Below are positions 2,513-31,060 of a stretch of 64,000 bases of DNA, in pieces (position 1 is the first letter of the stretch; every line of letters begins with the position of its first letter). Position numbers and translations under genes: made by a program. Under the pieces are notes generated by a model that was not told the DNA's origin, did no database searches, and saw only the letters and a list, made by a program, of their open reading frames with translations. The DNA comes from Escherichia coli (GTDB taxonomy: Bacteria > Pseudomonadota > Gammaproteobacteria > Enterobacterales > Enterobacteriaceae), in assembly GCF_051903065.1 (NCBI RefSeq), contig NZ_CP178438.1; one strand, written 5' to 3'.

Positions 2513-3971
2513 ACTTCACGGAATATTTCGCCACGGTCGCTTTCGCACCATGCGCTAATAAAAACAAGTACGCTTCCGTCACTTTTGCAGTAAACAAGCT
2601 ATTGTCTGGCAAATCATCACCAAAGATCGCCTTAATCGCCAGCAATGACTGGACGCGCGCTTTCCCTTCGGCACTACTTTGTACAGCCTTCTGAATAACA
2701 GGTAACAGTGGGTCACTGATTTCAATCGGATTTCCCTGTTCATCAACACCACCGACATAACGCATCCAACCCGCGACGCCCAGCGCCAGCAGATCGAACT
2801 TGCTGTCATGCGCCAGATGCCAGCGAACAGAATCCAACATCCGCTGTGGCAATTTCTGGCTGCCATCCATCGCAATCTGCCAGGTTCGATGGCGTAACGC
2901 CGGGTTGCTATAGCGTGCAATTAATCGGTTAGCGTAATCTTGCAAATCAACGCCCTGCACTTTCAGCGTCGGCGCTTGTTCCTGCAACATCAAGCCATAC
3001 GCCGCATGACGATAATGTTCATCTTCCATACAGTCATTAATGTGCTGATATCCGGCAAGATAACCCAGATACGCCAGGAATGAATGACTGCCGTTGAGCA
3101 TGCGCAACTTCATCTCTTCATAAGGCAGTACATCGCTAACCAGTTCTGCTCCCGCTTTTTCCCATTCCGGACGTCCGGCAACAAAATTATCTTCGATTAC
3201 CCACTGGCGGAAAGGTTCACAGGCAACGCCAGCAGGATCGCGCACACCGGTAAGTTGTTCGATTTTCGCCAGCGTATCCTCTGTCACTGCGGGCACAATA
3301 CGGTCCACCATTGTTGATGGGAAAGTCACGTTATCTTCGATCCATTGTGCCAGTTTTACATCAACGGCTTGCGCGTAGGAAGTGACAACGTCACGCATAA
3401 CATGACCGTTTTCTGGCATGTTGTCACATGACATGACGGTAAATGCGGGAAGTCCTGCCGCTTTACGGCGAGCCAGCGCCTCAACAATCACCCCTGTTGC
3501 TGTTTTCGGCTGGTGGGGATTTTGCACGTCGGCAACGACCATCGGGTGATCGAGCATTAACTGTCCGGTCGCCGGAGAGTGGAAATACCCTTTTTCGGTG
3601 ATTGTCAGAGAGACAATCGCGATTTGTGGTTCACACATCGCAGCCAACACGGTTTCTAAGCCATCTATCTGTACGTGCAAGGCTTTTTTAACGACGCCAA
3701 CGACGCGAGCCGTCCACGCATCGGCCGACATTTCCGCAACGGTATAAAGATTATCTTGCTGTTGTAAATCGGCAATTTGCTGTTCGCCACCGATTAAGTT
3801 GACCTCATAATATCCCCAGTCACTGAAATGTTCTGTAGCAAGAATATCGGCATACACGCCCTGATGCGCACGGTGAAATGCACCAAAGCCTAAATGAACA
3901 ATTCTTGGGGCCAGGTTATTACGATCATAAACAGGGAGTGTCGCTTTTGCTGATAACAAATTATTTCCCAT
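2511..3971 (-). CDS. ydfI: mannitol dehydrogenase-family oxidoreductase (mannonate/altronate oxidoreductase-like)
   Basis: 486-aa ORF; family assignment from overall similarity to UxuB-type proteins by memory. Confidence 0.85.
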
Positions 3972-7367: not shown

Positions 7368-7943
7368 CTACGGCAGTGCTGGCCATTCAATATCCTGTGC
7401 AGTTGACGTATCAACACGGTTCAGCAATACCCGATACTTTTTCCATGCTTCCAGCAACGAGATTTCTTCCTCCGTTGCAATTTCCAGATCTGCAGCATCC
7501 TGAAGCGGCGCAATATGCTCACTGGCTACCTGCATCAGGTTGTTTTTTGTTTCTTCCGCCTCCCGGATCCGGAACAGTTTTTCTGCTTCCGTATCCTTCA
7601 CCCAGGCTGTGCCGTTCCACTTCTGAAACTCCCCTTCCGGCGATAACCAGGTAACATTTTCCGGTAACGGACCGAGTTCAGAAATAAATAACGCGTCGCC
7701 GGAAGCCACGTCATAGACGGTTTTTCCCCGATGATCTTCAACGAGATGCCACGATGCCTCATCACTGTTGAAAACAGCCACGAAGCCTGCCGGAATATCT
7801 GGCGGTGCAATATCGGTACTGTTTGCTGGCAGACCTGTATGAGGCGGAATATATGCGTCACCTTCACCAATAAATTCATTAGTTCCGGCCAGCAGATTAT
7901 AAATTTTTATGGTCTGTGGTTGTTCACTCATTCTGAATGCCAT
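7368..7943 (-). CDS. tfaQ: tail fibre assembly protein
   Basis: 191-aa ORF immediately downstream of tail fibre gene; Tfa-family organisation. Confidence 0.85.
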
Positions 7944-9127
7944 TATGCAAGCCTCACAATATAGTTAAATGCGATGTTTTTGACGGTGTTTTCCGCGTTA
8001 CCAGCAGCGTTAACGGTGATGGTGTGTCCATGTGAACCAATCGCAACGGAGTGCGTATGAGCACCAATACCGACAGTATGTGCATGTGCGCCTGCGCTTG
8101 CAGCAGTGCCGGACAGCGAGTGGGTATGAGCACCATCTGATGATGTCTTCCCTGCATTACGAGTCTGGCCACTACCGCTTGTTGTGCTCATAATCCCCGC
8201 GCTTAGATTTGAAATCGCGGTATAACCATTAGGGAAAATGCTCGTGTTCGTGCCACCAAATGCACCGGAACTCTTGTGTTGGTGCGCACCGGCACTATTT
8301 GCAGTCCCGCTAATACTATGGGTATGCGCCCCGGTGTTATTCGTGGATTTGGTTCCGTAATCAAACGACGATGTGTTTTTCGTCCCCAAATCCGTACTGG
8401 ATGCGCTGGCGCTGTGGGTGTGCGATTTAATGCCGTCCTGTTCCTGAGACAATACGGCACGACCACTGGCGGGTTTGCCCTTAATCGTCCAGCCACGCAT
8501 ATCAGGGATCACGGCTGACGGATAAGCGGCTGCAAGTTTCGGGTATGCAGATTTGTCAAAAGTCTGCCCCTGCATCAGGGCATAGCCAGACGGAACGGTA
8601 TCTGATGGCCACGGGATTGGTGCGCCAGGCGGATAAAACTGCTCTGATGGCGTATAGAGTGAATAAACTGTACCGTCCGTTAACCCTTCCGGCTTATTAG
8701 CAGAATATGCTGGTGACGTATGAATCGTCACGCTGGCATTACTGGTATAATCCCATTGAATATTTACACCAGTCGCATAATTTCCGATTGCAACGTAAAT
8801 ATCGTAAGTATCACCAGATGTATTGACCCAGGCAAAATTTGTAAACCCTGTCGATGTGCGCTGCCATAAAGCACCAGTAATCCCCTTCGGATTACCATTA
8901 CCTGCACGCAAAACAAGTTCAGATATACCTGCCTGTTGAGGTGACCCCACGTTAAATCCCGCGCCACCAATCAACGTAATTGAAACAACAGAACTCGCCT
9001 GTGGCATGGTTACCGTTGCTAATTTGAACCAACCAGCACCACCGCTGAATGACATTGTTGTTGAGTTAAGCGTACCAATATCTTTCGGCGTCAGTGTTAT
9101 ATCCGCTGAAAGCGCCTTACCATTCAC
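7943..9127 (-). pseudogene. stfQ: side tail fibre protein fragment (C-terminal part lambda Stf-like with His-rich GAHxHS repeats); N-terminal/constant region absent
   Basis: 394-aa ORF; C-terminus ...GAPIPWPSD...GAHTHS...[18 protein letters not shown] resembles lambda Stf C-terminus; in-frame TGA immediately 5' of ATG and IS903 32 bp upstream. Confidence 0.75.
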
Positions 9128-11465: not shown

Positions 11466-14446
<2,981 letters not shown>

Positions 14447-21877: not shown

Positions 21878-22966
21878 TTACGCCAGTACGCCAATTGCCA
21901 GCGCGCGATCGATAAAACGAAATATCAGCTCCAGTTGGGAGCCATACTTATCTTCAAATGCCACTGTATCCGTATGCAGCTCGTTGTGATGCTTTCTGCA
22001 CAAAGGCAACACAAAGAGATCATGTGCTTTTGTTCCCATTCCGCCCTGCCCGTGACCAATCAGATGATGCGGATCGTCGGCTGGCATACCGCAGCAAGCA
22101 CACGGCTGTGTCTTAACCCAACGTGTGTATTTCTCCTTAACCCAGCGGCGACGTTTAGGCAGCTTCATGAAAGATTCCGGAGACTCTGGATCAACGGTGA
22201 TGCTTACCACCGTCTTTTCCTGTGGTGATTTTTGTTGCTGGTGGGCGTAAGGCAACGGTGCAAGATTTTTTGTGCGTTGTTTCAATATGCTGGTGGCGGT
22301 CTGCTCTCCCGGTACGATGTCGCTTTCGCGGTACACCGAGCAGATTTTTTCCGCTGGTAATCCCAGCGAACGACGCGATACAGCCTCAGGTAGTGCATCC
22401 ACCACCTGATTGCAGACCGCCCACCAGGATAATTCAGCCAAAGATAATTCCCGCTCCTGCGTACCGCTTATTGCGTGACGGATGACGTCAATCACCCATG
22501 CTGTCAGATTTTGTTGAGCAAGCAGCTCCAGTGATTCCGATGTCTGGTCACGCAGTTGGTTGTCGCAGTGCCAGCACAACACCATTGCGCCGGTACCATA
22601 ACGGTGAATGACTGTTTCAGTGTGATGGTAATCGCCATTAGGCCACTGGCAGGATGTAACATGACGTAATAGCCAGTCGGACAATGCGCCAACGCCGCCA
22701 GCAGCACGAATCACCCGTTCGTTACTAAAAAACGGCAGCAATGTTTTGTCTTCCGCCAGCGGCTGGCGAACGGCAGGAACGACTCCGGATGGCAGATTAC
22801 GCATGCTTTTTGGTTCCGGTTCCACCAGCACTCGAGGATTATGAAATATCTGTATGGATTCACGGCCCGGCTTAAGGACCACCAGCCCAAGCTCAGGCAC
22901 CAGAACAGGTCTAAGTAATACCCGCACGTTACCTCCAGATCCGTTGCTGGAAAGTGCGGGACGCAC
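21878..22966 (-). CDS. ydfU: prophage protein YdfU with C-terminal HNH-type motif
   Basis: 362-aa ORF; C-terminal CACCGMPADDPHHLIGHGQGGMGTKAHD...CRKHHNELH. Confidence 0.75.
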   Translation of the reverse strand: MRPALSSNGSGGNVRVLLRPVLVPELGLVVLKPGRESIQIFHNPRVLVEPEPKSMRNLPSGVVPAVRQPLAEDKTLLPFFSNERVIRAAGGVGALSDWLLRHVTSCQWPNGDYHHTETVIHRYGTGAMVLCWHCDNQLRDQTSESLELLAQQNLTAWVIDVIRHAISGTQERELSLAELSWWAVCNQVVDALPEAVSRRSLGLPAEKICSVYRESDIVPGEQTATSILKQRTKNLAPLPYAHQQQKSPQEKTVVSITVDPESPESFMKLPKRRRWVKEKYTRWVKTQPCACCGMPADDPHHLIGHGQGGMGTKAHDLFVLPLCRKHHNELHTDTVAFEDKYGSQLELIFRFIDRALAIGVLA

Positions 22967-23207
22967 GTGGTGGGCGTTCGGAATAAGGCAGCCTGACAGA
23001 GATTATCCAGTGCCGATAGTCGAGACTGAGAGCTTTCTTAACCTCGAACCCGCGCCTGCGGTAAGAATGAATCAGCCATTCGGCCTGTTCTGCAGTGCAT
23101 GGAGGGTGCTGGAACCATTCAGACTTGAATGCGTGAGAATACCGCCCGTGCGTGCAGGCAAGAACGGGCGAATTATCAGAATTGTAATATTTTGCGTTGC
23201 GTGCCAT
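22929..23207 (-). CDS. hypothetical prophage protein (92 aa)
   Basis: ORF with protein-like composition overlapping predicted ydfU start by ~38 nt; no family assigned. Confidence 0.4.
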   Translation of the reverse strand: MARNAKYYNSDNSPVLACTHGRYSHAFKSEWFQHPPCTAEQAEWLIHSYRRRGFEVKKALSLDYRHWIISVRLPYSERPPRASRTFQQRIWR

Positions 23208-23273
23208 CGGTTTTCTCCGGTGGCACGGTGTTACTCAGCGGGAGTTCAGCCCCGCGCAAGATTGTAGATGAGT

Positions 23274-23525
23274 TTATTCTCCTGAAAAAGCAGAAAAGCC
23301 AGCTTTTATTCCGATCTCTTTCAATGCCTGTAATGAAGTGACAAACTCACCTTCGCGCAAGATAAATCCGTCCGTGACCCGAGCATCCACAAAATTAATT
23401 AACGCAGCCCCATTCTTTCGCAAACACATAATGCGGTAATGACTAACAAGATTTCCATTTTCAACGCACACAGCATAGAGGCCATCTTCACAAAAAATTT
23501 TACGCAGTTCTTCGATGTTCATCAT
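23274..23525 (-). CDS. rem: prophage protein Rem
   Basis: 83-aa ORF MMNIEELRKIFCEDGLYAVCVENGN... Confidence 0.8.
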   Translation of the reverse strand: MMNIEELRKIFCEDGLYAVCVENGNLVSHYRIMCLRKNGAALINFVDARVTDGFILREGEFVTSLQALKEIGIKAGFSAFSGE

Positions 23526-23640
23526 CAGAATCCTTCCGGATAATTAGCTCTCCCCTTTAAGGGACCATCCCTCTTATCCCTGCGCGCTACTTAAGTATTT
23601 TTGATTCTATTCCGGCACCGTCCAGAACTTCAAACGCGTT

Positions 23641-23673
23641 GAAAATAAAAACAAAAACCCGCCGAAGCGGGTT
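23641..23673 (-). terminator. Rho-independent terminator downstream of relBE-hokD
   Basis: Stem AACCCGCTTCGGCGGGTT followed by T-rich run on minus strand. Confidence 0.65.
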
Positions 23674-23741
23674 AAGTGCGGGTGCGTTGAGGATGCCTGC
23701 CACATCAGAGGTGGCGAGGGATTTCTCCCCCGCCGGGTCTC

Positions 23742-23897
23742 TTACTCCTCAGGTTCGTAAGCTGTGAAGACAGCGACCTCCGTCTGGCCGGTTCGGATTC
23801 GTACCTCGCAGAGGTCTTTCCTCGTTACCAGTGCCGTCACTATGACGGTTAAACAGATGACGATCAGGGCGATTAACATCGCCTTTTGCTGCTTCAT
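23742..23897 (-). CDS. hokD: Hok-family small membrane toxin (RelF)
   Basis: Hand translation: MKQQKAMLIALIVICLTVIVTALVTRKDLCEVRIRTGQTEVAVFTAYEPEE (51 aa); not in supplied ORF list. Confidence 0.85.
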   Translation of the reverse strand: MKQQKAMLIALIVICLTVIVTALVTRKDLCEVRIRTGQTEVAVFTAYEPEE

Positions 23898-23968
23898 AGC
23901 CTGCTTCTCCTGTCAACGCAAAGCAGAAGTGTCACCTTCGGTGCGAAACAGAGATGTCATGCTTTGGT

Positions 23969-24256
23969 TCAGAGAATGCGTTTGACCGCCTCGCTATATA
24001 CTTCCGAGCGTTCTCTTTTCCCAACAGAAATCACGAAAACGACAACTTTCTCGTCTATAACCTGGTATACAAGGCGATAGCCTGAAGACCGGAGCTTAAT
24101 CTTGTAACAATCAGGCATACCACGGAGCTTGTTTGCTTCAATCCGGGGTGACTCAAGTACTTCAACCAGCTTCTTTTTCAACTGTTCACGTACCGTCGAG
24201 CCCAGCTTTCGCCATTCCTTTAGTGCCCGCTCGTCAAAATCCAGAAAATACGCCAT
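23969..24256 (-). CDS. relE: RelE mRNA interferase toxin
   Basis: 95-aa ORF MAYFLDFDERALKEWRKLGSTVREQLKKKL... Confidence 0.9.
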   Translation of the reverse strand: MAYFLDFDERALKEWRKLGSTVREQLKKKLVEVLESPRIEANKLRGMPDCYKIKLRSSGYRLVYQVIDEKVVVFVISVGKRERSEVYSEAVKRIL

Positions 24257-24495
24257 CAGAGTTCATCCAGCGTCACACGTACTGGCTTAGGATTACGAAG
24301 CCGTTCTTTCACTATCTCCACAAGTTCAGCATCTTCATCACTCAGGAGTGTCTGTTTGAACGGCAAGCGTTCATTGTCAGCGATATACTCGAGCATGAGA
24401 CGAAGCGCTTCAGAAGGAGTTACACCCATTTTTTCAAGCGCGGCGTAAGAACGCGCTTTAAGTTCATCGTCAATACGCAGGTTAATGCTACCCAT
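24256..24495 (-). CDS. relB: RelB antitoxin
   Basis: 79-aa ORF MGSINLRIDDELKARSYA...; overlaps relE start. Confidence 0.9.
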   Translation of the reverse strand: MGSINLRIDDELKARSYAALEKMGVTPSEALRLMLEYIADNERLPFKQTLLSDEDAELVEIVKERLRNPKPVRVTLDEL

Positions 24496-24504
24496 GTCTT
24501 ACAC

Positions 24505-24535
24505 CTCTTGTAATTACAAATGTCATTACAAGTAT
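24505..24535. promoter_or_regulatory. relBE operator-like inverted repeats
   Basis: CTTGTAATTACAAATGTCATTACAAG: palindromic TTGTAAT/ATTACAA elements just upstream of relB. Confidence 0.55.
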
Positions 24536-24825
24536 CGCACTACAACATGCTTAGGGCAAGTCACGAAGGAAGTCAGAAAGTAGTCGTAAGAACGGTGATC
24601 ACTGTCCGCTTTGTGCCAGGAGCAGCCATTGCTAAGTCCATCCTGTATTGTGCAGGTCAGCTCGTTTTTAAAGAGTCCGGCCATCATCTTACTGGTACAG
24701 ACACCATATACTTTGTGACGGTCAGGCTACATATGCACAACTCAACTTATTCATCTATTTTTTGCTTTAGCATGTCAGTGTTGCTTTCTCGTCGGCGGGT
24801 GAGCGGTGACCTGACCTGTCGATAA
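24520..24825 (+). CDS. ydfV: prophage protein YdfV
   Basis: 101-aa ORF divergent from relB. Confidence 0.6.
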   Translation: MSLQVSHYNMLRASHEGSQKVVVRTVITVRFVPGAAIAKSILYCAGQLVFKESGHHLTGTDTIYFVTVRLHMHNSTYSSIFCFSMSVLLSRRRVSGDLTCR

Positions 24826-24977
24826 AGGAACGTAACACGTTTTATGCAACACCCGCATGCGGCAGAAAATTATTGCCGAACGTTTACCCCTGTCAACAAG
24901 CTTTACTTTCTGAGGCGCGCCAGCCCGCGAGGAAAACAATCTGAACATCAAACAATTAATGACACAAGAAATACGAT

Positions 24978-25004
24978 TAAAGATTTTTTTGTACATGCCG
25001 ATAG
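24978..25004 (+). promoter_or_regulatory. sigma-28 (FliA) type promoter upstream of flxA
   Basis: TAAAGATT-N11-GCCGATAG versus consensus TAAAGTTT-N11-GCCGATAA, 24 bp upstream of flxA ATG. Confidence 0.7.
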
Positions 25005-25027
25005 TGCTTTTTTAAAAGGAGAAATCT

Positions 25028-25360
25028 ATGTCTGTCACAATTCAGGGAAATACCTCAACCGTTATTTCAAACAACTCCGCCCCGGAAGGAACATCAGAAA
25101 TAGCCAAAATCACAAGACAAATTCAGGTGCTGACTGAAAAGCTTGGGAAAATCTCATCGGAAGAGGGGATGACGACACAGCAGAAAAAAGAAATGGCTGC
25201 ATTGGTACAGAAGCAAATTGAAAGCCTCTGGGCTCAACTGGAGCAGTTGTTAAGGCAGCAGGCAGAGAAAAAGAATGAAGACGCGACAGTTCAGCCTGAT
25301 AAAAAAGAAGAGAAAAAAGACGATACAAATACCGCTGGCACCATTGATATTTACGTCTAA
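25028..25360 (+). CDS. flxA: FliA-regulated protein FlxA
   Basis: 110-aa ORF MSVTIQGNTSTVISNNSAPEGTSEIAKITRQIQ... Confidence 0.85.
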   Translation: MSVTIQGNTSTVISNNSAPEGTSEIAKITRQIQVLTEKLGKISSEEGMTTQQKKEMAALVQKQIESLWAQLEQLLRQQAEKKNEDATVQPDKKEEKKDDTNTAGTIDIYV

Positions 25361-25374
25361 GTGACAGCCGTATT

Positions 25375-25397
25375 GTGGCCCTCATCGGGCCACTTTT
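25375..25397 (+). terminator. Rho-independent terminator after flxA
   Basis: GTGGCCC-TCATC-GGGCCAC followed by TTTT. Confidence 0.7.
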
Positions 25398-25796
25398 CGC
25401 CATCAGCCTTTTCTTTAAAGACATATTATCTTTGTATCATTTCTGATAGTTAACATTACAAGATATAAGTAATGGACGCACTCCCAATTAGTCTATTTAA
25501 ATCGCCACGAGTTTAACTGACAACCCATGATCAATTATGAATTGCAACTATTTCTGTAGTCACTTTTGTGGGGACAGTCCACAAAACTGCCAACTTCCGC
25601 TTCTTGCTCTTAGCGGACATTAGCATAGGCTATTTACCATAACGCCTCATTACGCACACCGCCCAGACTGACTCAGCGCGTTTCTGGCATATCCCCGGTA
25701 AAACAAGTAACAAACCACCCGAAAATGAACACCAGAAACGCGACTTAAGAATCTACCCTATGAATGGATATGCACTCAACCGAATCGATCTTGGTT

Positions 25797-27110
25797 TCAA
25801 TCTTTTTTATCGGGATCAGGCTTCTTTTTAGGTAACTTCGGGGGCTTAACTTGCTGATGACTTTGCGTTCGGCGCGTAAGCCAGGGATGGTCAGCTTTAG
25901 GTTTAACATAGTATTTTGAGCGTAAATCAATACGGGCATTATCCACTCGTTCATGGACACTCTTTTCATCATCCGGTGGTATAGGCTCCGGGCCATCAAC
26001 ATACTTTTCCCAGCCCAGCGCTTTCCCGTCATACAGAACGTTAATTTCACCGTCAAAGTTCTCGCATACAGTAACAACCGAATGCCTAAGTCGATATCCC
26101 CGGCCCTCACTGCGTACCTGAAACGCACTGCTTTTGTACTGGAAAGTGAGATTTTTAGACAGAACGCGCTTCGCCTGTAGGCTGAAGATATAACCCAGTT
26201 CCTCTTCAGAATGGTGCACATCAAGATGAGCATTATCAGTAGTACGAGGCGACGTAGCGAACCGGTTGTTATAGGCTTCAATAAAGGTCGGCAACCATGC
26301 ATTTGCTGTTTCAATATCACTGATATTCTGAAGCCGCATTTCTTTGACCAGCCTGTCCTGTAGTGTCTGATTGGCGCGCTCTACCCGCCCTTTTGCCTGC
26401 GGGCTGTTGGCATGGATTGGCTCGATGCCCAGTGTCTTTATCGCACGAGTGAACTGGGTCAGCTCACCTTCCCGCTCTGGGTTATTTACCCTGAATATAC
26501 TGTGTCTATCAGAGTAGAGAGCGAGCGGTACGCCATGATCATTAAGGTAACCCCGGAGGGTTTCCATGTAAGCCCGGGTTGTTTCAGCAGGCACAAAACG
26601 CAACGCCATCAACGCACTGGTGGCATCATCAATGAAAACGATCAGTGTACATCTGGGGCCTCGATTTTCAAACCAGTCATGAGATGAGCCATCAATCTGG
26701 ATCAGTTCACCGTAAGATGGTCGTCGCATGCGGCGTTGATATATACGGGCAATTTTACGACGGCGTTCACGCCATAACCCCTCTTCTATCATCCACTTTC
26801 TGAGAGTTTCAACGGATAAAGATAAACCGTGTATCTCGCGCAATTTTTCGCACGCAAACGTAGGTCCAAAATCAGCGTAACGGCCTTTGAGGAGTGAAAT
26901 TACTGTTGCTCTGAATTCAGTAGAAAAGGAATTATTAGGACGCTTTCCACGTCGGTGGGAAACCAGACCAGAAGGCCCTTCATTTCTATACCGTTGCACC
27001 AGACGTTTAACCTGCCGAATAGAAATGCCAATGCGTGCCGCAGCTTGTTCCTGAATAATCTGAAGTCGGTGGAGTTCCTTATGACTCATCGTAACAGTCT
27101 CTTTGATCAT
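25797..27110 (-). CDS. DDE transposase/integrase with N-terminal HTH and rve (retroviral-integrase-type) core; IS481/ISNCY-like, family not confirmed
   Basis: 437-aa ORF; motifs ...IQIDGSSHDWF..., ...VFIDDATS..., ...HANSPQAKGRVERANQTLQDRL...; element ends not identified. Confidence 0.7.
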   Translation of the reverse strand: MIKETVTMSHKELHRLQIIQEQAAARIGISIRQVKRLVQRYRNEGPSGLVSHRRGKRPNNSFSTEFRATVISLLKGRYADFGPTFACEKLREIHGLSLSVETLRKWMIEEGLWRERRRKIARIYQRRMRRPSYGELIQIDGSSHDWFENRGPRCTLIVFIDDATSALMALRFVPAETTRAYMETLRGYLNDHGVPLALYSDRHSIFRVNNPEREGELTQFTRAIKTLGIEPIHANSPQAKGRVERANQTLQDRLVKEMRLQNISDIETANAWLPTFIEAYNNRFATSPRTTDNAHLDVHHSEEELGYIFSLQAKRVLSKNLTFQYKSSAFQVRSEGRGYRLRHSVVTVCENFDGEINVLYDGKALGWEKYVDGPEPIPPDDEKSVHERVDNARIDLRSKYYVKPKADHPWLTRRTQSHQQVKPPKLPKKKPDPDKKD

Positions 27111-27444
27111 GAAAAATCCCCCAGAGAATTGTCTGGGGACATTTTAGAATGGTTCAAAGGGGACATTACAGCTTGGTGTTAACAATAGCCTGCTTCTCCG
27201 TGCCTTTCGGCACGTAAGAGGCTAACCTACATGTGTCTAGCATGAAATTGGCCTCAGATTAATGTTAAGCGTCTTGCAGGACGCGTAATGTTAACTGGGG
27301 CTTTTCTCTATCTGCCGTTGGTGTCCATGCCCGAGGCAGATAGCCTCAAGCACCCGCAGTCATTCTACTTAACTAAGATTTCCCCGCAAACCGTTTTTGT
27401 CCAGCACAGTAAATATCCAACTAAACCAATGGAGTTCGCTGTAT

Positions 27445-27624
27445 TTACCGCCAGTATTCAATGCACATGACCGCCATGAACACCCCTAAAAAAAGGGCAT
27501 TTATATATCCAAATATTAATATCAAAACATCAACTTTTTCCATATACCTTGCTGTGAAGATGATGGGCATACATGATGCGAACAACCAGAACGCAACAAA
27601 CAAAAACTGCAATGCGTTTTTCAT
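27445..27624 (-). CDS. small membrane protein, 59 aa, two predicted TM helices, unknown function
   Basis: AGGAGG 4 nt upstream of ATG; MKNALQFLFVAFWLFASCMPIIFTARYMEKVDVLILIFGYINALFLGVFMAVMCIEYWR. Confidence 0.5.
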   Translation of the reverse strand: MKNALQFLFVAFWLFASCMPIIFTARYMEKVDVLILIFGYINALFLGVFMAVMCIEYWR

Positions 27625-27878
27625 TATTCCTCCTACAATCAATGTGCAATTACATTTAAACACACCTCAATTTGGCCGGACATATAAATATCTAAACCAG
27701 AAAAAATCACTTACATAGCGTTACAAACTCTTTAGTCTAAAGGTTCATCGTAAAACATTCCCCATACTTATCAGTCCGTTCCGCGCCAGGTAGCTCATTG
27801 CCTTATCTGGCAACCTGTAATCAGGTTTCCGCTTTTTCAGTTGGCTGGTCGTTTAACCGACATAGTTAATCCATTAAT

Positions 27879-28166
27879 CTAGTTGCCGGATGTTGGTGGA
27901 TTTTCGCGTTTTAGTTGTTCATAAAAGTGCACAGCTTTAACCAGTTCTTCTGATGTAACTGGGACTGGTGAGGCAGTGAATAAGGCCTGAATTTGATAGT
28001 TCGGCCTGTCGTTACAATCCTCTTTTTTCGGTACATATTTCCAGTCACCAGACCACTACTTCCCCTGAAAGTCCGTAACGCCTTTTTTCACGTAGCGATA
28101 TCGCCATGCCACTGGTTTTGCTTGCCCCGCCGTTTCATGCCCTTCCTGATAATTAATCTCGCTCAT
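27879..28166 (-). pseudogene. small prophage ORF (95 codons) interrupted by one in-frame TAG at 28056-28058
   Basis: Hand translation MSEINYQEGHETAGQAKPVAWRYRYVKKGVTDFQGK-TAG-WSGDWKYVPKKEDCNDRPNYQIQALFTASPVPVTSEELVKAVHFYEQLKRENPPTSGN. Confidence 0.45.
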
Positions 28167-28354
28167 TCATCGCCCCACTCATCACAATATGCTTCGACCG
28201 GAGTTTTTCCCGCTTCATAGTCATCACGCTAGGATTCGACATCAGCAGCACTTCCACCGCGTAACTCACCATAGTCCATTAATAGTTCATCCCGCTCTTC
28301 AAAACTGATGTTATATTTAGCTGAACAAAAATCAGCCACTTTGTTCTTCCTCAT
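28163..28354 (-). pseudogene. small prophage ORF (63 codons) interrupted by one in-frame TAG at 28229-28231; stop overlaps next ORF start (ATGA)
   Basis: Hand translation MRKNKVADFCSAKYNISFEERDELLMDYGELRGGSAADVES-TAG-RDDYEAGKTPVEAYCDEWGDE. Confidence 0.45.
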
Positions 28355-28403
28355 CGTCTTTTATTTCGTGGTATGAGTAATTGCAGTAGTTAAAGAAAAT
28401 TTC

Positions 28404-28514
28404 TTATGCTCCGTCATGAATTTCCTCAGGTGTTGCGTCATCGTCCACTTCGAATACATCCTCAAAATCTCCACCAGCTATTCCCGTTTCAATAATAATT
28501 TTGAACTTTCGCAT
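28404..28514 (-). CDS. possible small acidic ORF (36 aa) at head of degenerate small-gene cluster
   Basis: MRKFKIIIETGIAGGDFEDVFEVDDDATPEEIHDGA; may itself be a fragment. Confidence 0.25.
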   Translation of the reverse strand: MRKFKIIIETGIAGGDFEDVFEVDDDATPEEIHDGA

Positions 28515-28776
28515 TTCACTACCGCCCTTTCGGGCGGCCTCCTGATGTTCTGAGGGTGCAGAAATCCATCCGGTTAAGGATTAAATTTTATTTACAGAAC
28601 TGAATTTAATTATTCAGATATACGTATCTGTAGCCTTACGAATCTACTCACTGGATGCCTCTTTCATAAAAATAATCCAGTGGGTTTTATCGTTTTTTCC
28701 CTGTTCGTTGACAGATAACAGGTTTTCTGTCTGTCAGTGCCAGAATCTGGCTTACCGGTATTTGCGTTTCATTCCA

Positions 28777-29133
28777 TTAAAAAATCAGAACGCCGTGCGG
28801 CCTCAACACCCGAAAGGCTTCTTTAAATCTCTGTCGCGAATCATCACGCCAGGCATCTTTATTCAGCCGTCCATATTTCTTTCCCATCCAGGCGTTATCA
28901 CCAACACTCTCAAGATGCGGAGGGTCTAATACAACCATCGAAAAAGATGCGTCTGCAAATGATAATGCACGAAAATCTGCGATAATGTCAGGGCTGATAA
29001 TCAAGCGTCTCCCATTGCGTAATGTGTATCCTTCTTTTCTGATATCGCTGAATATCGCCCGTTCGTCAGACTTATCGAACCAGAACATGCGGCTGCCACA
29101 GCACATATCAAGAATGGTTGCCGGTGCACTCAC
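28777..29133 (-). CDS. SAM-dependent methyltransferase-like protein, probably truncated (118 aa)
   Basis: Motif I-like LDMCCGSRM and motif IV-like VVLDPPH; ORF too short for a complete DNA methyltransferase. Confidence 0.5.
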   Translation of the reverse strand: MSAPATILDMCCGSRMFWFDKSDERAIFSDIRKEGYTLRNGRRLIISPDIIADFRALSFADASFSMVVLDPPHLESVGDNAWMGKKYGRLNKDAWRDDSRQRFKEAFRVLRPHGVLIF

Positions 29134-29552
29134 TGCGCCACGTCCTGAAAATTACCCTGATAGAAAGCCAGTATGCGCTGCATAACTTCGCTCTTCCGGC
29201 ACTCGCGACAGATTATGTTTAGGCGACTGTCGTAGCGACGTATTTCTCCGTCAGGTGATGACCAGATAAGGTCCGGATCAACCACAGCAGGTTTCTTCAC
29301 CTTTGCCCTCGAGAGTTTTTTGCGGGCGTTTTGCCAGTCCTTACGCGCCTGTTCAGAGGGGAATAACCCGTAGCCGGAGTTGTATACATCGCCACTGGCT
29401 ACCAGCTCTCTGGCAAGAACGCTCATCAGATATCTAGTCGCACCTGTTTTAGCTTCCAGTTGCCGTAACGTCTCACGGCCGCTCTGGCGCACGAGTTCCA
29501 CCACCTGCCATTTAATTTTTTCCCGCTCTTCTTGTGTAAAAACTTTTGCCAC
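29130..29552 (-). CDS. hypothetical protein (140 aa), translationally coupled to downstream methyltransferase-like gene
   Basis: Stop overlaps next start (ATGA at 29130-29133); HTH-like segment TLRQLEAKTGATRYLMSVLARELV. Confidence 0.5.
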   Translation of the reverse strand: MAKVFTQEEREKIKWQVVELVRQSGRETLRQLEAKTGATRYLMSVLARELVASGDVYNSGYGLFPSEQARKDWQNARKKLSRAKVKKPAVVDPDLIWSSPDGEIRRYDSRLNIICRECRKSEVMQRILAFYQGNFQDVAQ

Positions 29553-29592
29553 AAGTCCCCCTTAAAATTACCTCATGACCTGAAATCAACAC

Positions 29593-30558
29593 TTATCCTC
29601 TGAAACCAGGCGGAATTTCTGTATCCGGTTCAGAAATATGATTAACACAACGCTGTACAGGTGAACGTCCCAGGCGGATGACCAGTTCGTCCCATTTTTC
29701 GAGGAGCTTTGACGGGCTCATGATGTTTTTTACCCAGAATGGATCTCGCTGAACCCGACCAAACATTTCGCAAATTTGTCTGTGGCTTCTGCCATCCAGC
29801 ATCCGCATTGTGCGCACGTCATTGGCCCAGGCAGTCCAGTTAGGCTCTTTTGGTCGCATGATCTCGCCATCATCACTGGCTGCCTGTTCGTAGAGACCCA
29901 CGATCCGCCCCCAGATCCACTGCGCACACGCCAAATCCTCCCTGCTACCCCACTGGCGTTTTTTCGCACTAAACACAACCGCGTCGGAGTTCCGGGTTAA
30001 AAAATCCTGTTCAGTCGTCTGCGGGTCCGGTTGCGAAGCTTCCGGACGAAAAGTGTTTTTATTCTCTGTAGTAATCTCTGTTGTATTCTCTGTAAGATCA
30101 TCAGGCCATTTTGACCCGATGACATTGGGTCGTTTTGAACCAATGGAGCGTTTCATTTTGACCTCTTCCATCGTGTCATTTTGACCTGATGGAGCGGCGC
30201 ATTTTGAACCGATGGATTCGCTCAATTTGCCACCATCTAAAAGCTCGCTCCCATAGTTGATCGTGTAGAAATTGGTCATATCGCGCTTTGATTTATTGAG
30301 CTTTTCACAACGCAAAAGCCCCAGCGTTTTCAGACTTGCAAACGCGCGCTTTAACGTTGACTCTGACCAGAATGGGAACTGTTCCAGCCATTGTTCCGTT
30401 GTGTTATAAATCCAGCGAACACCATCACATTCCATGCCGGAGTTGGTATCTCTCAACCAGTAGTGCAGTTGTTGCAAAACAATGGCTTCGTTTAAGCCAA
30501 TTTTCATTGCCAGCTGCGTGTTTATAACCAGTGGGCGTTCAGCAAAAAGAAGGCTCAT
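29593..30558 (-). CDS. lambda O-like replication initiation protein
   Basis: ORF 29593-30612 (start probably Met at 30558); C-terminal region ...WANDVRTMRMLDGRSHRQICEMFG... resembles lambda gpO; iterons inside gene. Confidence 0.75.
   Translation of the reverse strand: MSLLFAERPLVINTQLAMKIGLNEAIVLQQLHYWLRDTNSGMECDGVRWIYNTTEQWLEQFPFWSESTLKRAFASLKTLGLLRCEKLNKSKRDMTNFYTINYGSELLDGGKLSESIGSKCAAPSGQNDTMEEVKMKRSIGSKRPNVIGSKWPDDLTENTTEITTENKNTFRPEASQPDPQTTEQDFLTRNSDAVVFSAKKRQWGSREDLACAQWIWGRIVGLYEQAASDDGEIMRPKEPNWTAWANDVRTMRMLDGRSHRQICEMFGRVQRDPFWVKNIMSPSKLLEKWDELVIRLGRSPVQRCVNHISEPDTEIPPGFRG
30105..30240. repeat. iteron array (5-6 copies, ~23-24 bp period) inside O-like gene: candidate replication origin
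   Basis: Repeated CATTTTGACC/CGTTTTGAACC...GATGGA units at ~30107, 30131, 30154, 30177, 30201, 30224; flanked by AT-rich TCTCTGT repeats. Confidence 0.7.
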
Positions 30559-31060
30559 AATTCCATCCAGCTTTTTGTTGGTATTGCTGTCGATACGCAA
30601 GTTTGAAAGCAATTGCTTTTTCTATAAGTTCGTCAGTTTCACGATCCACTACGGCAGGATCAGCAAAAAGCAGTCCGGACTCCACCACATCGCCATATTC
30701 TTTGTTTAACCCGGCGATCATGCACGTGATGCTTTTTCCGTCAGTAATTTCACGATACAACCTGAAATCATTAATCCGGATAGCCTCCATAATTGCAGGC
30801 ACTAGCGCCGTGAACTTTTCACGCTTATCCCTGGTGTCGATAGCCTTCCAGCGTTCAAATATCTTCACTCGATTAACGCCAAGCGCTCGCTGATCAATCG
30901 CGCCACCTTCATATGTGACACGCTGAACATCGATGTTCGGGCGCTCTTTCAAAGCCCAGAATGCTTCAGTGATTAATATCGTCGCCTGCTCCTGTGTCAT
31001 TCCTGGTCGACATATCCAGGCATCCAGAGCCTCACGAGCCTGTTCAGGAGTGATTTTCAT
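30539..31060 (-). CDS. YdaT-like protein (cII-position regulator analog)
   Basis: 173-aa ORF downstream of cro-like dicC; ...DKREKFTALVPAIMEAI... resembles Rac YdaT by memory. Confidence 0.55.
   Translation of the reverse strand: MKITPEQAREALDAWICRPGMTQEQATILITEAFWALKERPNIDVQRVTYEGGAIDQRALGVNRVKIFERWKAIDTRDKREKFTALVPAIMEAIRINDFRLYREITDGKSITCMIAGLNKEYGDVVESGLLFADPAVVDRETDELIEKAIAFKLAYRQQYQQKAGWNYEPSFC

Follow-up and report, generated by a model that had tools for sequence, protein, structure and literature searches.

The transposase gene in a 64,000-bp stretch of Escherichia coli DNA (contig NZ_CP178438.1, assembly GCF_051903065.1; the whole stretch is called the window below) is very probably one half of a 3,274-bp transporter element of the ISEsa1 type (IS1202 family, ISTde1 subgroup), inserted at the Shine-Dalgarno (SD) sequence and start codon of a prophage hok gene. 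ISEsa1 itself is the ISfinder element of the IS1202 family (formerly ISNCY) that was first found in Cronobacter sakazakii. The mobile unit runs from 23911 to 27184, both of its ends start with TGT, and its parts lie in the order left terminal inverted repeat (IRL), transposase gene, cer-like Xer site, flxA, ydfV, relB, relE and right terminal inverted repeat (IRR). The gene is of a known family, and a bare prophage transposase would be ordinary; what is not ordinary is the extent of the element, its target duplication of 15-16 bp, its repeated landing on hok start codons, and the explanation it provides for relBEF (relB-relE-hokD) and the orphan hokD.

Ends of the element and the empty site

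The IRR occupies 23911-23961 and starts TGTCAACGCAAAGCAGAAGTGTCACCTT, with the motifs GTGTCACC at 23929-23936 and ATGTCATG at 23954-23961. The IRL occupies 27134-27184; its reverse complement starts TGTTAACACCAAGCTGTAATGTCCCC, with GGGGACAT motifs at 27159-27166 and 27135-27142 (repeat D8), spaced 24 bp apart. The 3,274-bp unit begins TGTCAACGCAAAGCAGAAGTGTCACC at one end and, read inward from the opposite end, begins TGTTAACACCAAGCTGTAATGTCCCC. The two terminal repeats match at 22 of 30 positions, the unique best match to the 27184 end on both strands of the window, and the next-best match to the IRL elsewhere reaches 18-19 of 30. Each end carries a pair of G(G/T)GACA(T/C) motifs, at offsets 19-26 and 43-50 in the IRL and 19-26 and 44-51 in the IRR. 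The IRL reads TGTTAAC...ATGTCCCC and the IRR TGTCAAC...GTGTCACC, with the second block at positions 19-26 in both. The 8-mer GGGGACAT is not enriched across the window (3 found against 1.8 expected), and it is the position of the two IRL copies that matters.

The unit is bracketed by the 15-mer ATAGCCTGCTTCTCC, present at 23896-23910, where on the minus strand it contains the hok SD and the AT of the start codon, and again at 27185-27199 on the leader side. This 15-mer has two copies in the 64 kb, with 0.01 expected, and a single copy (3001-3015) in the empty site L001 (L numbers denote the loci compared). L001 is a prophage with a continuous hokD locus, ...CTTCAT-AGCCTGCTTCTCC-TTGACC..., which aligns to 23655-23911 and to 27185-28500 of the window, the two alignments overlapping by 15-16 bp; its hokD start codon adjoins the sequence that in the window follows 27185. 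Homology to hok-leader loci likewise starts at 27185. Among the complete E. coli genomes searched, three types of relative were found: some are identical over the whole region, some are of the K-12 type (25000-25981 only), and many are prophages that match only from 27185 onward and carry an intact hokD.

An earlier sequence-only reading of the interval 25398-27444 had reported no clean terminal repeats and no target duplication. Both are present, with the IRR 1.5 kb beyond that interval, and it was the comparison with a locus lacking the insertion, which that reading had recommended, that defined the ends and the duplication. Of the three GGGGACA motifs to which it drew attention, those at 27135 and 27159 are the IRL pair. 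The third (GGGGACAG, 25570-25577) takes up loop and stem sequence of the palindrome I10 (25556-25594) and cannot be an inverted-repeat partner because it is on the wrong strand; the palindrome is part of the flxA cargo module rather than a terminal repeat, and it accompanies flxA in L005, where the transposase is absent. Another candidate pair of ends, the 12-bp perfect repeat AGTTAACATTAC at 25448 and 27285, was the best-looking result of an inverted-repeat search limited to 25300-27600. It was rejected, as 27285 lies within the hok/sok leader and the pair has no flanking duplication.

The transposase

The transposase is a 437-amino-acid open reading frame (ORF) on the minus strand (25797-27110), located between flxA (25028-25360) and the replication region, as the sequence-only reading had placed it. 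That reading also correctly described an N-terminal helix-turn-helix, where Pfam HTH_32, HTH_29 and HTH_28 all score above cutoff, and a DDE core, which aligns as D140, D201 and E244. Its term "rve-type" suits the core but not the profile, with Pfam rve_3 at 24.4 bits falling just below the cutoff of 26.5. Between the two families that it had named, IS481 and ISNCY, the profiles decide for the second: NCBIfam NF033594 (transpos_ISNCY_2, an ISNCY equivalog) scores 455.2 bits against a cutoff of 250 and is covered over profile positions 7-365 of 368, whereas the IS481 family profile NF033577 reaches 126.8 bits, below its cutoff of 224.

According to Siguier et al., the signature of the IS1202 family is a DDE triad with two additional conserved Asp residues between the first two D and a Gln at E+7. 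The window transposase carries both the extra Asp pair and the Gln, and in a six-sequence alignment D140, D161-D162, D201, E244 and Q251 (E+7) are invariant. The ORF encodes an ISNCY/IS1202-family DDE transposase of the ISEsa1 type, and neither an IS481 transposase nor a phage integrase. The element also occurs on plasmids of Enterobacter, Klebsiella, Citrobacter and Salmonella.

In the identical genome NZ_AP045789, the PGAP annotation splits the single 437-codon ORF into "ydfW" (25797-25946, 49 aa) and an "incomplete ISNCY transposase" (26067-27110). The split is an annotation artefact inherited from K-12 naming, and in this way automated annotation conceals an intact reading frame.

A terminator-type scan found a terminator-like hairpin followed by a T-run on the minus strand at 27118-27139 (inverted repeat I12). 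It lies just inside the IRL, overlaps the inner GGGGACAT motif and ends 7 nt short of the transposase ATG. Since the element always enters in the reading direction of hok, this hairpin could shield the transposase from read-through from the hok promoter.

Independent insertions of the unit

Does the unit move as a whole? Complete copies elsewhere came from searches of plasmids, contigs and metagenomes; a scan of viral contigs gave a single locus. An Enterobacter asburiae plasmid (L011) carries an element of about 3,301 bp in an R1-type hok, with a 15-bp duplication, ATGGCCTTCTTCTCC. Three metagenomic copies are each flanked by a 16-bp duplication: one of 3,304 bp in a hokD-type target (L043) and two in plasmid-type hok genes, of 4,237 bp (L044) and of 4,600 bp with a transposase that is 90% identical (L050). 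In an Enterobacteriaceae genome contig, a 2,575-bp element (L030) occupies a non-hok site, and its duplication matches at 13 of 15 positions. With relE, relB, ydfV and flxA between the ends, and with the unit present at other sites with duplications of their own, the element is a transporter insertion sequence (IS).

Across the copies, the IRL, transposase and Xer site are constant on one side, and a hairpin, relB, relE and the IRR are constant on the other. The middle is variable, consisting of flxA and ydfV in the window and of 1.2-2.3 kb of different DNA in L044 and L050. As a control, the same end-finding was applied to a Castellaniella locus with a transposase of 49% amino-acid identity (L020). 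The result was ISCade1, 1,426 bp, with a 15-bp duplication CCTGGCCGAGGAACT and an IRR TGTCAACGCTAAAT..., identical to the curated entry in the Siguier et al. supplement. This agreement validates the end-finding method and establishes TGTCAACGC as a genuine IRR start in this lineage; the first 9 nt of the window IRR are identical to those of the ISCade1 IRR.

Some loci have the same frame and much more DNA. In L041 over 10 kb of other DNA separates the IRL-transposase-Xer frame from relB-relE, and the insert matches an ncrY/ncrC (nickel/cobalt efflux) region annotated in L008 and a HupE/UreJ region annotated in L009. L014, L008, L048 and L056 were grouped with L041. Between the transposase and the Xer block of L018 lies a 140-aa ORF (7630-8052) that looks FosA-like by eye. 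L041 and L018 suggest the existence of much larger cargo-carrying relatives. One further match, a contig labelled as a Collinsella metagenome-assembled genome (L013), is 100% identical to this E. coli prophage segment, probably through contamination during binning.

Target preference

Grouped at 90% identity, the 37 IRL junctions gathered across every source reduce to 21 distinct flank contexts. Nine of these are different hok leaders, all cut at the same SD/ATG position and all in the same orientation. In four more, the junctions are end-to-end over 15/16-mers of the hok-SD type, although two of the four read GGAGTTGTATGGGTCC, which has only GGAG in common with the hok SD. One context is the SD/ATG of a leader with an rdlD match, and seven are unrelated sequences. 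In this biased sample there is a strong preference for hok start regions, strong because such regions are a tiny fraction of these replicons. A short stem-loop lies immediately 5' of the SD in all hok leaders.

The rdlD context comes from a Citrobacter relative (L016, 5812-5927; 79% amino-acid identity), in which the IRL directly follows the SD and ATG of the leader. The rdlD antitoxin match (RF01813) scores 52.4 bits against a cutoff of 50, and this would be a second type I toxin family struck at the start codon. In L060 and L063, an end-like sequence ...GCAATATCTGTGTGAACTTACACA adjoins the same 15/16-mers to the left of, and opposite, the IRL; it may be the end of another element with the same target.

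Cargo and effect on the hok locus

The Hok ORF and the sok leader, contiguous in L001, are both present in the window but stand 3.3 kb apart. The 51-aa hokD ORF (23742-23897, minus strand; Pfam HOK_GEF 82.9 bits; hokD in the PGAP annotation of the identical genome) lies directly 3' of relE. Its former leader, with the sok antitoxin and mok region, is orphaned at 27184-27355 (minus strand), where Rfam RF01794 (sok) matches over the full length of the model at 104 bits against a cutoff of 59; this leader is 95% identical to that of the intact hokD in L001. Nowhere in the window is the Hok ORF contiguous with a mok/sok-encoding leader, and Rfam gives no sok match beside hokD. Because the duplicated ATAGCCTGCTTCTCC holds the ribosome-binding site, hokD has kept its translation start while losing the mok/sok leader. 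Insertion at the hok SD/ATG thus leaves hokD with no sok or mok of its own.

The cargo next to hokD is the type II toxin gene relE (23969-24256, minus strand; Pfam ParE_toxin 51 bits; relE in PGAP) and its antitoxin gene relB (24256-24495, minus strand; Pfam RelB 112 bits). The relBE operon reads outward across the IRR into hokD. There is no terminator-like site between relE and hokD; the first, at 23673-23656, comes after hokD. The remaining cargo consists of flxA (plus strand; Pfam FlxA 53.8 bits) and the ydfV ORF (24520-24825, plus strand), which has no Pfam match. Homology of other loci ends within ydfV at 24622/24623 (L009, L010, L007) or begins there at 24608 (L005), and since ydfV spans this module junction it is probably a chimeric or spurious ORF.

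The statement that relBE is integrated into hokD is said to originate with Ramisetty and Santhosh 2016. No description of the element was found in the literature searched, which did not include that paper. Published accounts do report that relBE is integrated into hokD and is of plasmid origin (PMC6379469), and that relB-relE-hokD (relBEF) is a single transcript (PMC5120126). A transposon insertion gives a mechanism for both the integration and the co-transcription. The relB-relE-hokD arrangement of E. coli K-12, a textbook locus, is apparently what a single transposon insertion left behind in a prophage hok gene, and its origin thus acquires a concrete mechanism.

The window copy and K-12

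The window transposase alone lacks nine residues (QESINRHIT) after residue 19, in the N-terminal DNA-binding region, when set beside five relatives of 49-94% identity. It also has Ser143, three residues past the catalytic D140, where 5 of 5 aligned relatives have Pro. E. coli genomes carry a median of one copy and at most three. These features suggest that the window copy is a fixed and probably disabled relic and that the 446-aa plasmid allele is likely the active form.

K-12 is 99.9% identical to the window over 22000-25981 and then jumps to 30781. The 4.8-kb stretch 25982-30780, absent from K-12, holds the transposase body, the IRL and the sok leader, together with genes for a methyltransferase, a DUF977 protein and a replication protein; at its far end the deletion runs into a truncated ydfX (YdaT-like). 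What is left of the transposase is its last 61 codons. These include ydfW (49 aa), called intK in recent literature, which equals window 25797-25946 and hence the last 49 codons; the suspicion, voiced in the sequence-only reading, that intK derives from this gene was correct. With the transposase body, IRL and sok leader lost, the mobile-element origin of the locus is not visible in K-12.

The name intK implies another view, also raised at the outset, in which the gene is a domesticated or prophage-associated integrase serving a Qin-like prophage. The gene does sit in a prophage, usually as one copy per genome, and it is at least 99% conserved in many E. coli genomes. This view is scarcely credible when set against the equivalog-level match to a transposase family, the terminal repeats and duplication, and the occurrence of the same gene on many plasmids of other genera. 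Moreover, the window allele has the nine-residue deletion and has lost a conserved Pro, and K-12 has lost the gene without any known effect on its prophage.

Internal junctions and alternative readings

At 25588-25620, near the end of the published 1.6-kb ISEsa1, lies a degenerate inner end, TGCCAACTT.., followed by a hairpin, TCCGCT-N10-AGCGGA. In a set of "short" copies (L008, L014, L004, L007 and L024), the common sequence stops at 25588-25602. This inner end carries no G(G/T)GACA(T/C) motifs in the required orientation, and the right boundaries of the short copies read TGCCAAC and CGTCAAC. In the 14 loci whose downstream sequence extends for at least 2 kb, the inner end showed no duplication; position 25588 was rejected as a transposition end, having no flanking duplication in any locus examined.

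Could the window nevertheless hold an ordinary stand-alone ISEsa1 of about 1.6 kb (25588-27184), with relBE-ydfV-flxA having come separately and the outer "IRR" and 15-bp repeat being incidental? The published length of 1,609 bp speaks for this, as do the many loci that hold only the IRL to 25588-25602, so that a stand-alone IS may exist or have existed, and the inner boundary TGCCAAC does resemble TGTCAAC. We nonetheless consider it very unlikely. The literature, like the 14 loci, reports no inner-end duplication, and neither transposase-type motif is present there. The 15-bp duplication is an exact match to the empty site and brackets 23911-27184, so the empty-site comparison already contradicts a stand-alone IS, and the same outer ends recur with locally matching duplications in at least five other places.

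Two kinds of internal site bound the modules. The first is a cer-like XerCD site at 25633-25661 (minus strand), GGTGTGCGTAA-tgaggcg-TTATGGTAAAT, with an 11-7-11 layout that recurs in all close relatives as GGTG(T/C)GCGTAA, a 7-bp centre and TTATGGTAAAT. Read as ATTTACCATAA-CGCCTCA-TTACGCACACC, it can be compared with the enterobacterial plasmid Xer site ATTTAACATAA-TCTTTG-TTATGCGCACC in the Siguier supplement. The flanking DNA switches precisely there, XerC-side in L012 and XerD-side in L044, a pattern that suggests Xer-mediated exchange of cargo. The second kind consists of hairpin-like GTCCGCT-N10-AGCGGAC sites (24605-24628 and 25596-25620), which bound the variable cargo at both edges. Inside ydfV, where the relBE module has its inner edge, the site (24605-24628) reads GTCCGCT-N10-AGCAGCC. 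L009, L010 and L007 have GTCCGCT..AG(C/T)GGAC and diverge right after it, while L005 has GGCTGCT..AGCAGCC; the window junction combines an arm from each type. An IS110-family element (ISEsa2) lies within the 25596-type hairpin of L004.

Two further candidates for internal ends were set aside. The sequence at 25669-25696 (TGACTCAGCGCG...CATATCCCC), considered as an old IRR, matches the IRL at about 14 of 26 positions by eye with a spacing 2 nt longer; its distance from the XerC arm is 8 bp, and diverged copies stay homologous straight across it. That it was formerly an IRR is speculation. The relBE module (23911-24622) is not a two-ended cassette of its own, its inner edge being a hairpin with no TGT-type end.

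Several further observations weigh against transposition of the whole unit into hok starts as the full account of these loci. One locus with the full unit, L039, has a flanking repeat of only 6 bp; for this non-hok copy, the phage-collection match (Gifsy-1) considered as an empty site ends some 100 bp short of the junction. Among copies, the relBE-IRR module shows 98-99% identity while the transposases range from 71 to 100% identity (in L010, 98.8% and 71%, respectively), and these values indicate that recombination reshuffles parts in addition to transposition. End-to-end IRL-15 bp-IRR junctions, with hok-SD-like 15-mers between, occur in L009 (~3070-3100), L010 (~2880-2910) and L058 (~11700-11730); each may record a tandem insertion into the regenerated target or be a fossil circle junction. 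The window transposase has a nine-residue deletion and there is a median of one copy per E. coli genome. The sample of junctions is biased, in that the pattern used for the metagenome scan deliberately excluded the window-type flank, and enterobacterial plasmids, in which hok is common, dominate.

An unlikely alternative is that the composite arose by homologous recombination between two hok loci, one with the IRL at its leader and one with the relBE end at its ORF, such that the unit never transposed whole. The identity of relBE-IRR at 98-99% where transposases are 71-90% identical, the change of partner at the Xer site, and the end-to-end junctions would all be at home in this scheme. We retain it, with low confidence, because the Xer and hairpin exchange sites together with the relBE-IRR identity do indicate that modules are reshuffled. 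It is difficult to see, though, how it would place the same local 15/16-mer on both sides of each complete copy, in four different hok sequences and one non-hok site. Furthermore, the duplication is 15 bp in one case and 16 bp in another within one hok type, as expected of separate transposition events, and at the outer end both the IRR sequence and the spacing of the motifs are those of the family. Insertion of the whole 3,274-bp transporter element remains our preferred explanation.

Proposed mechanism and significance

In the proposed pathway, the transposase would presumably bind the paired G(G/T)GACA(T/C) motifs of both ends and make a staggered cut of 15-16 bp in the target. The target in the window was the SD/ATG of a lambdoid-prophage hok gene, where insertion duplicated ATAGCCTGCTTCTCC. 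hokD became the third gene of an outward-reading, terminator-less relBE operon (relBEF), and its leader with sok was stranded 3.3 kb away. Elements built on this frame have repeatedly entered different hok genes, with position and orientation unchanged; the window copy is a fixed and probably inactive relic. The ends, the duplication, the empty site, the independent insertions and the family assignment are shown by the sequences, and the cleavage geometry, the basis of the hok preference, the inactivity of the window copy and the consequences for expression are inferred from them.

A broader and more tentative proposal, which we rate at slightly less than an even chance, is that ISEsa1-type elements are transposons with their own relBE addiction module that home to the translation starts of type I toxins (hok and, in one relative, an ldr/rdl-like gene). 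Insertion would uncouple the toxin from its antisense RNA and put it under the auto-repressed relBE promoter, and cargo (flxA, nickel/cobalt resistance, a fosA-like gene) would be swapped at the internal Xer and hairpin sites. If this proposal is true, ISEsa1 may have been reported without a duplication because its right end had been set too near the transposase.

For the spread and competition of addiction modules on plasmids and prophages, it is relevant that a transposon with one toxin-antitoxin system aboard inserts into another. The preference for hok starts would also be a second kind of site preference in the IS1202 family, beside that of the Xer-targeting subgroup.

Comparison with known systems

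ISEsa1 as published is 1,609 bp long, with terminal repeats matching at 15 of 22 positions and no duplication in multiple copies, and it was placed in a separate "no TSD" (target-site duplication) branch (Harmer, Hall and co-workers; PMC10132070). The window element shares its transposase lineage: PGAP calls the 446-aa relatives, which are near-identical to the window transposase apart from the nine-residue deletion, "IS1202-like element ISEsa1 family transposase". The distance from the IRL to about 25588 is 1,597 bp (1,624 bp with the 27 bp restored), close to the published length. The difference is that the window unit ends at a distal, motif-bearing IRR, carries cargo and has a 15-16-bp duplication. 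The sequence-only reading had foreseen that a match to a known IS with mislocated ends would make this an ordinary copy; the family is indeed known, but the published 1,609-bp description does not fit the unit that moved. We infer that the published right end is not the one used in transposition, having apparently been set too near the transposase, which would account for the weak repeats and missing duplication and would move ISEsa1 to the 15-17-bp class.

The IS1202 family has three subgroups distinguished by duplication length, and the ISTde1 type has duplications of 15-17 bp, TGT ends and a second conserved block near position 20 (Siguier et al.). In the supplement of that study, ISEsa1 apparently falls in the ISTde1-type listing that precedes the "IS1202 group" sheet. 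[quoted passage not shown] The window element has TGT ends with the second block at 19-26, and duplications of 15 bp (window and L011) or 16 bp (L043, L044 and L050); by terminal repeats and duplication length it fits the ISTde1 subgroup. ISCade1 of Castellaniella defragrans, a member of this subgroup, has the same 15-bp duplication, TGT termini, IRR start (TGTCAACGC) and two ATGTCC-type motifs per end, and its transposase, 49% identical to that of the window, has the same catalytic residues. Unlike the window element, ISCade1 (1,426 bp) is a plain IS that lacks both cargo and an internal Xer site, and its target lies outside hok.

In the ISAjo2/ISAba32 subgroup of the same family, insertion likewise has a single orientation and keeps a set distance from a short conserved site; a passenger gene is present in some members (e.g. 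ISKpn21). The duplications of this subgroup are 5-6 bp long and its insertion points lie 5 bp away from the XerC arm of pdif/dif sites, whereas the window element has a 15-16-bp duplication, prefers hok starts and holds its Xer-type site internally. Lastly, the relBEF operon and orphan hokD of the K-12 Qin prophage are the identical locus, for which the relB-relE-hokD order and co-transcription have been described. K-12 has lost the transposase body, the IRL and the sok leader, while the window keeps the whole insertion.

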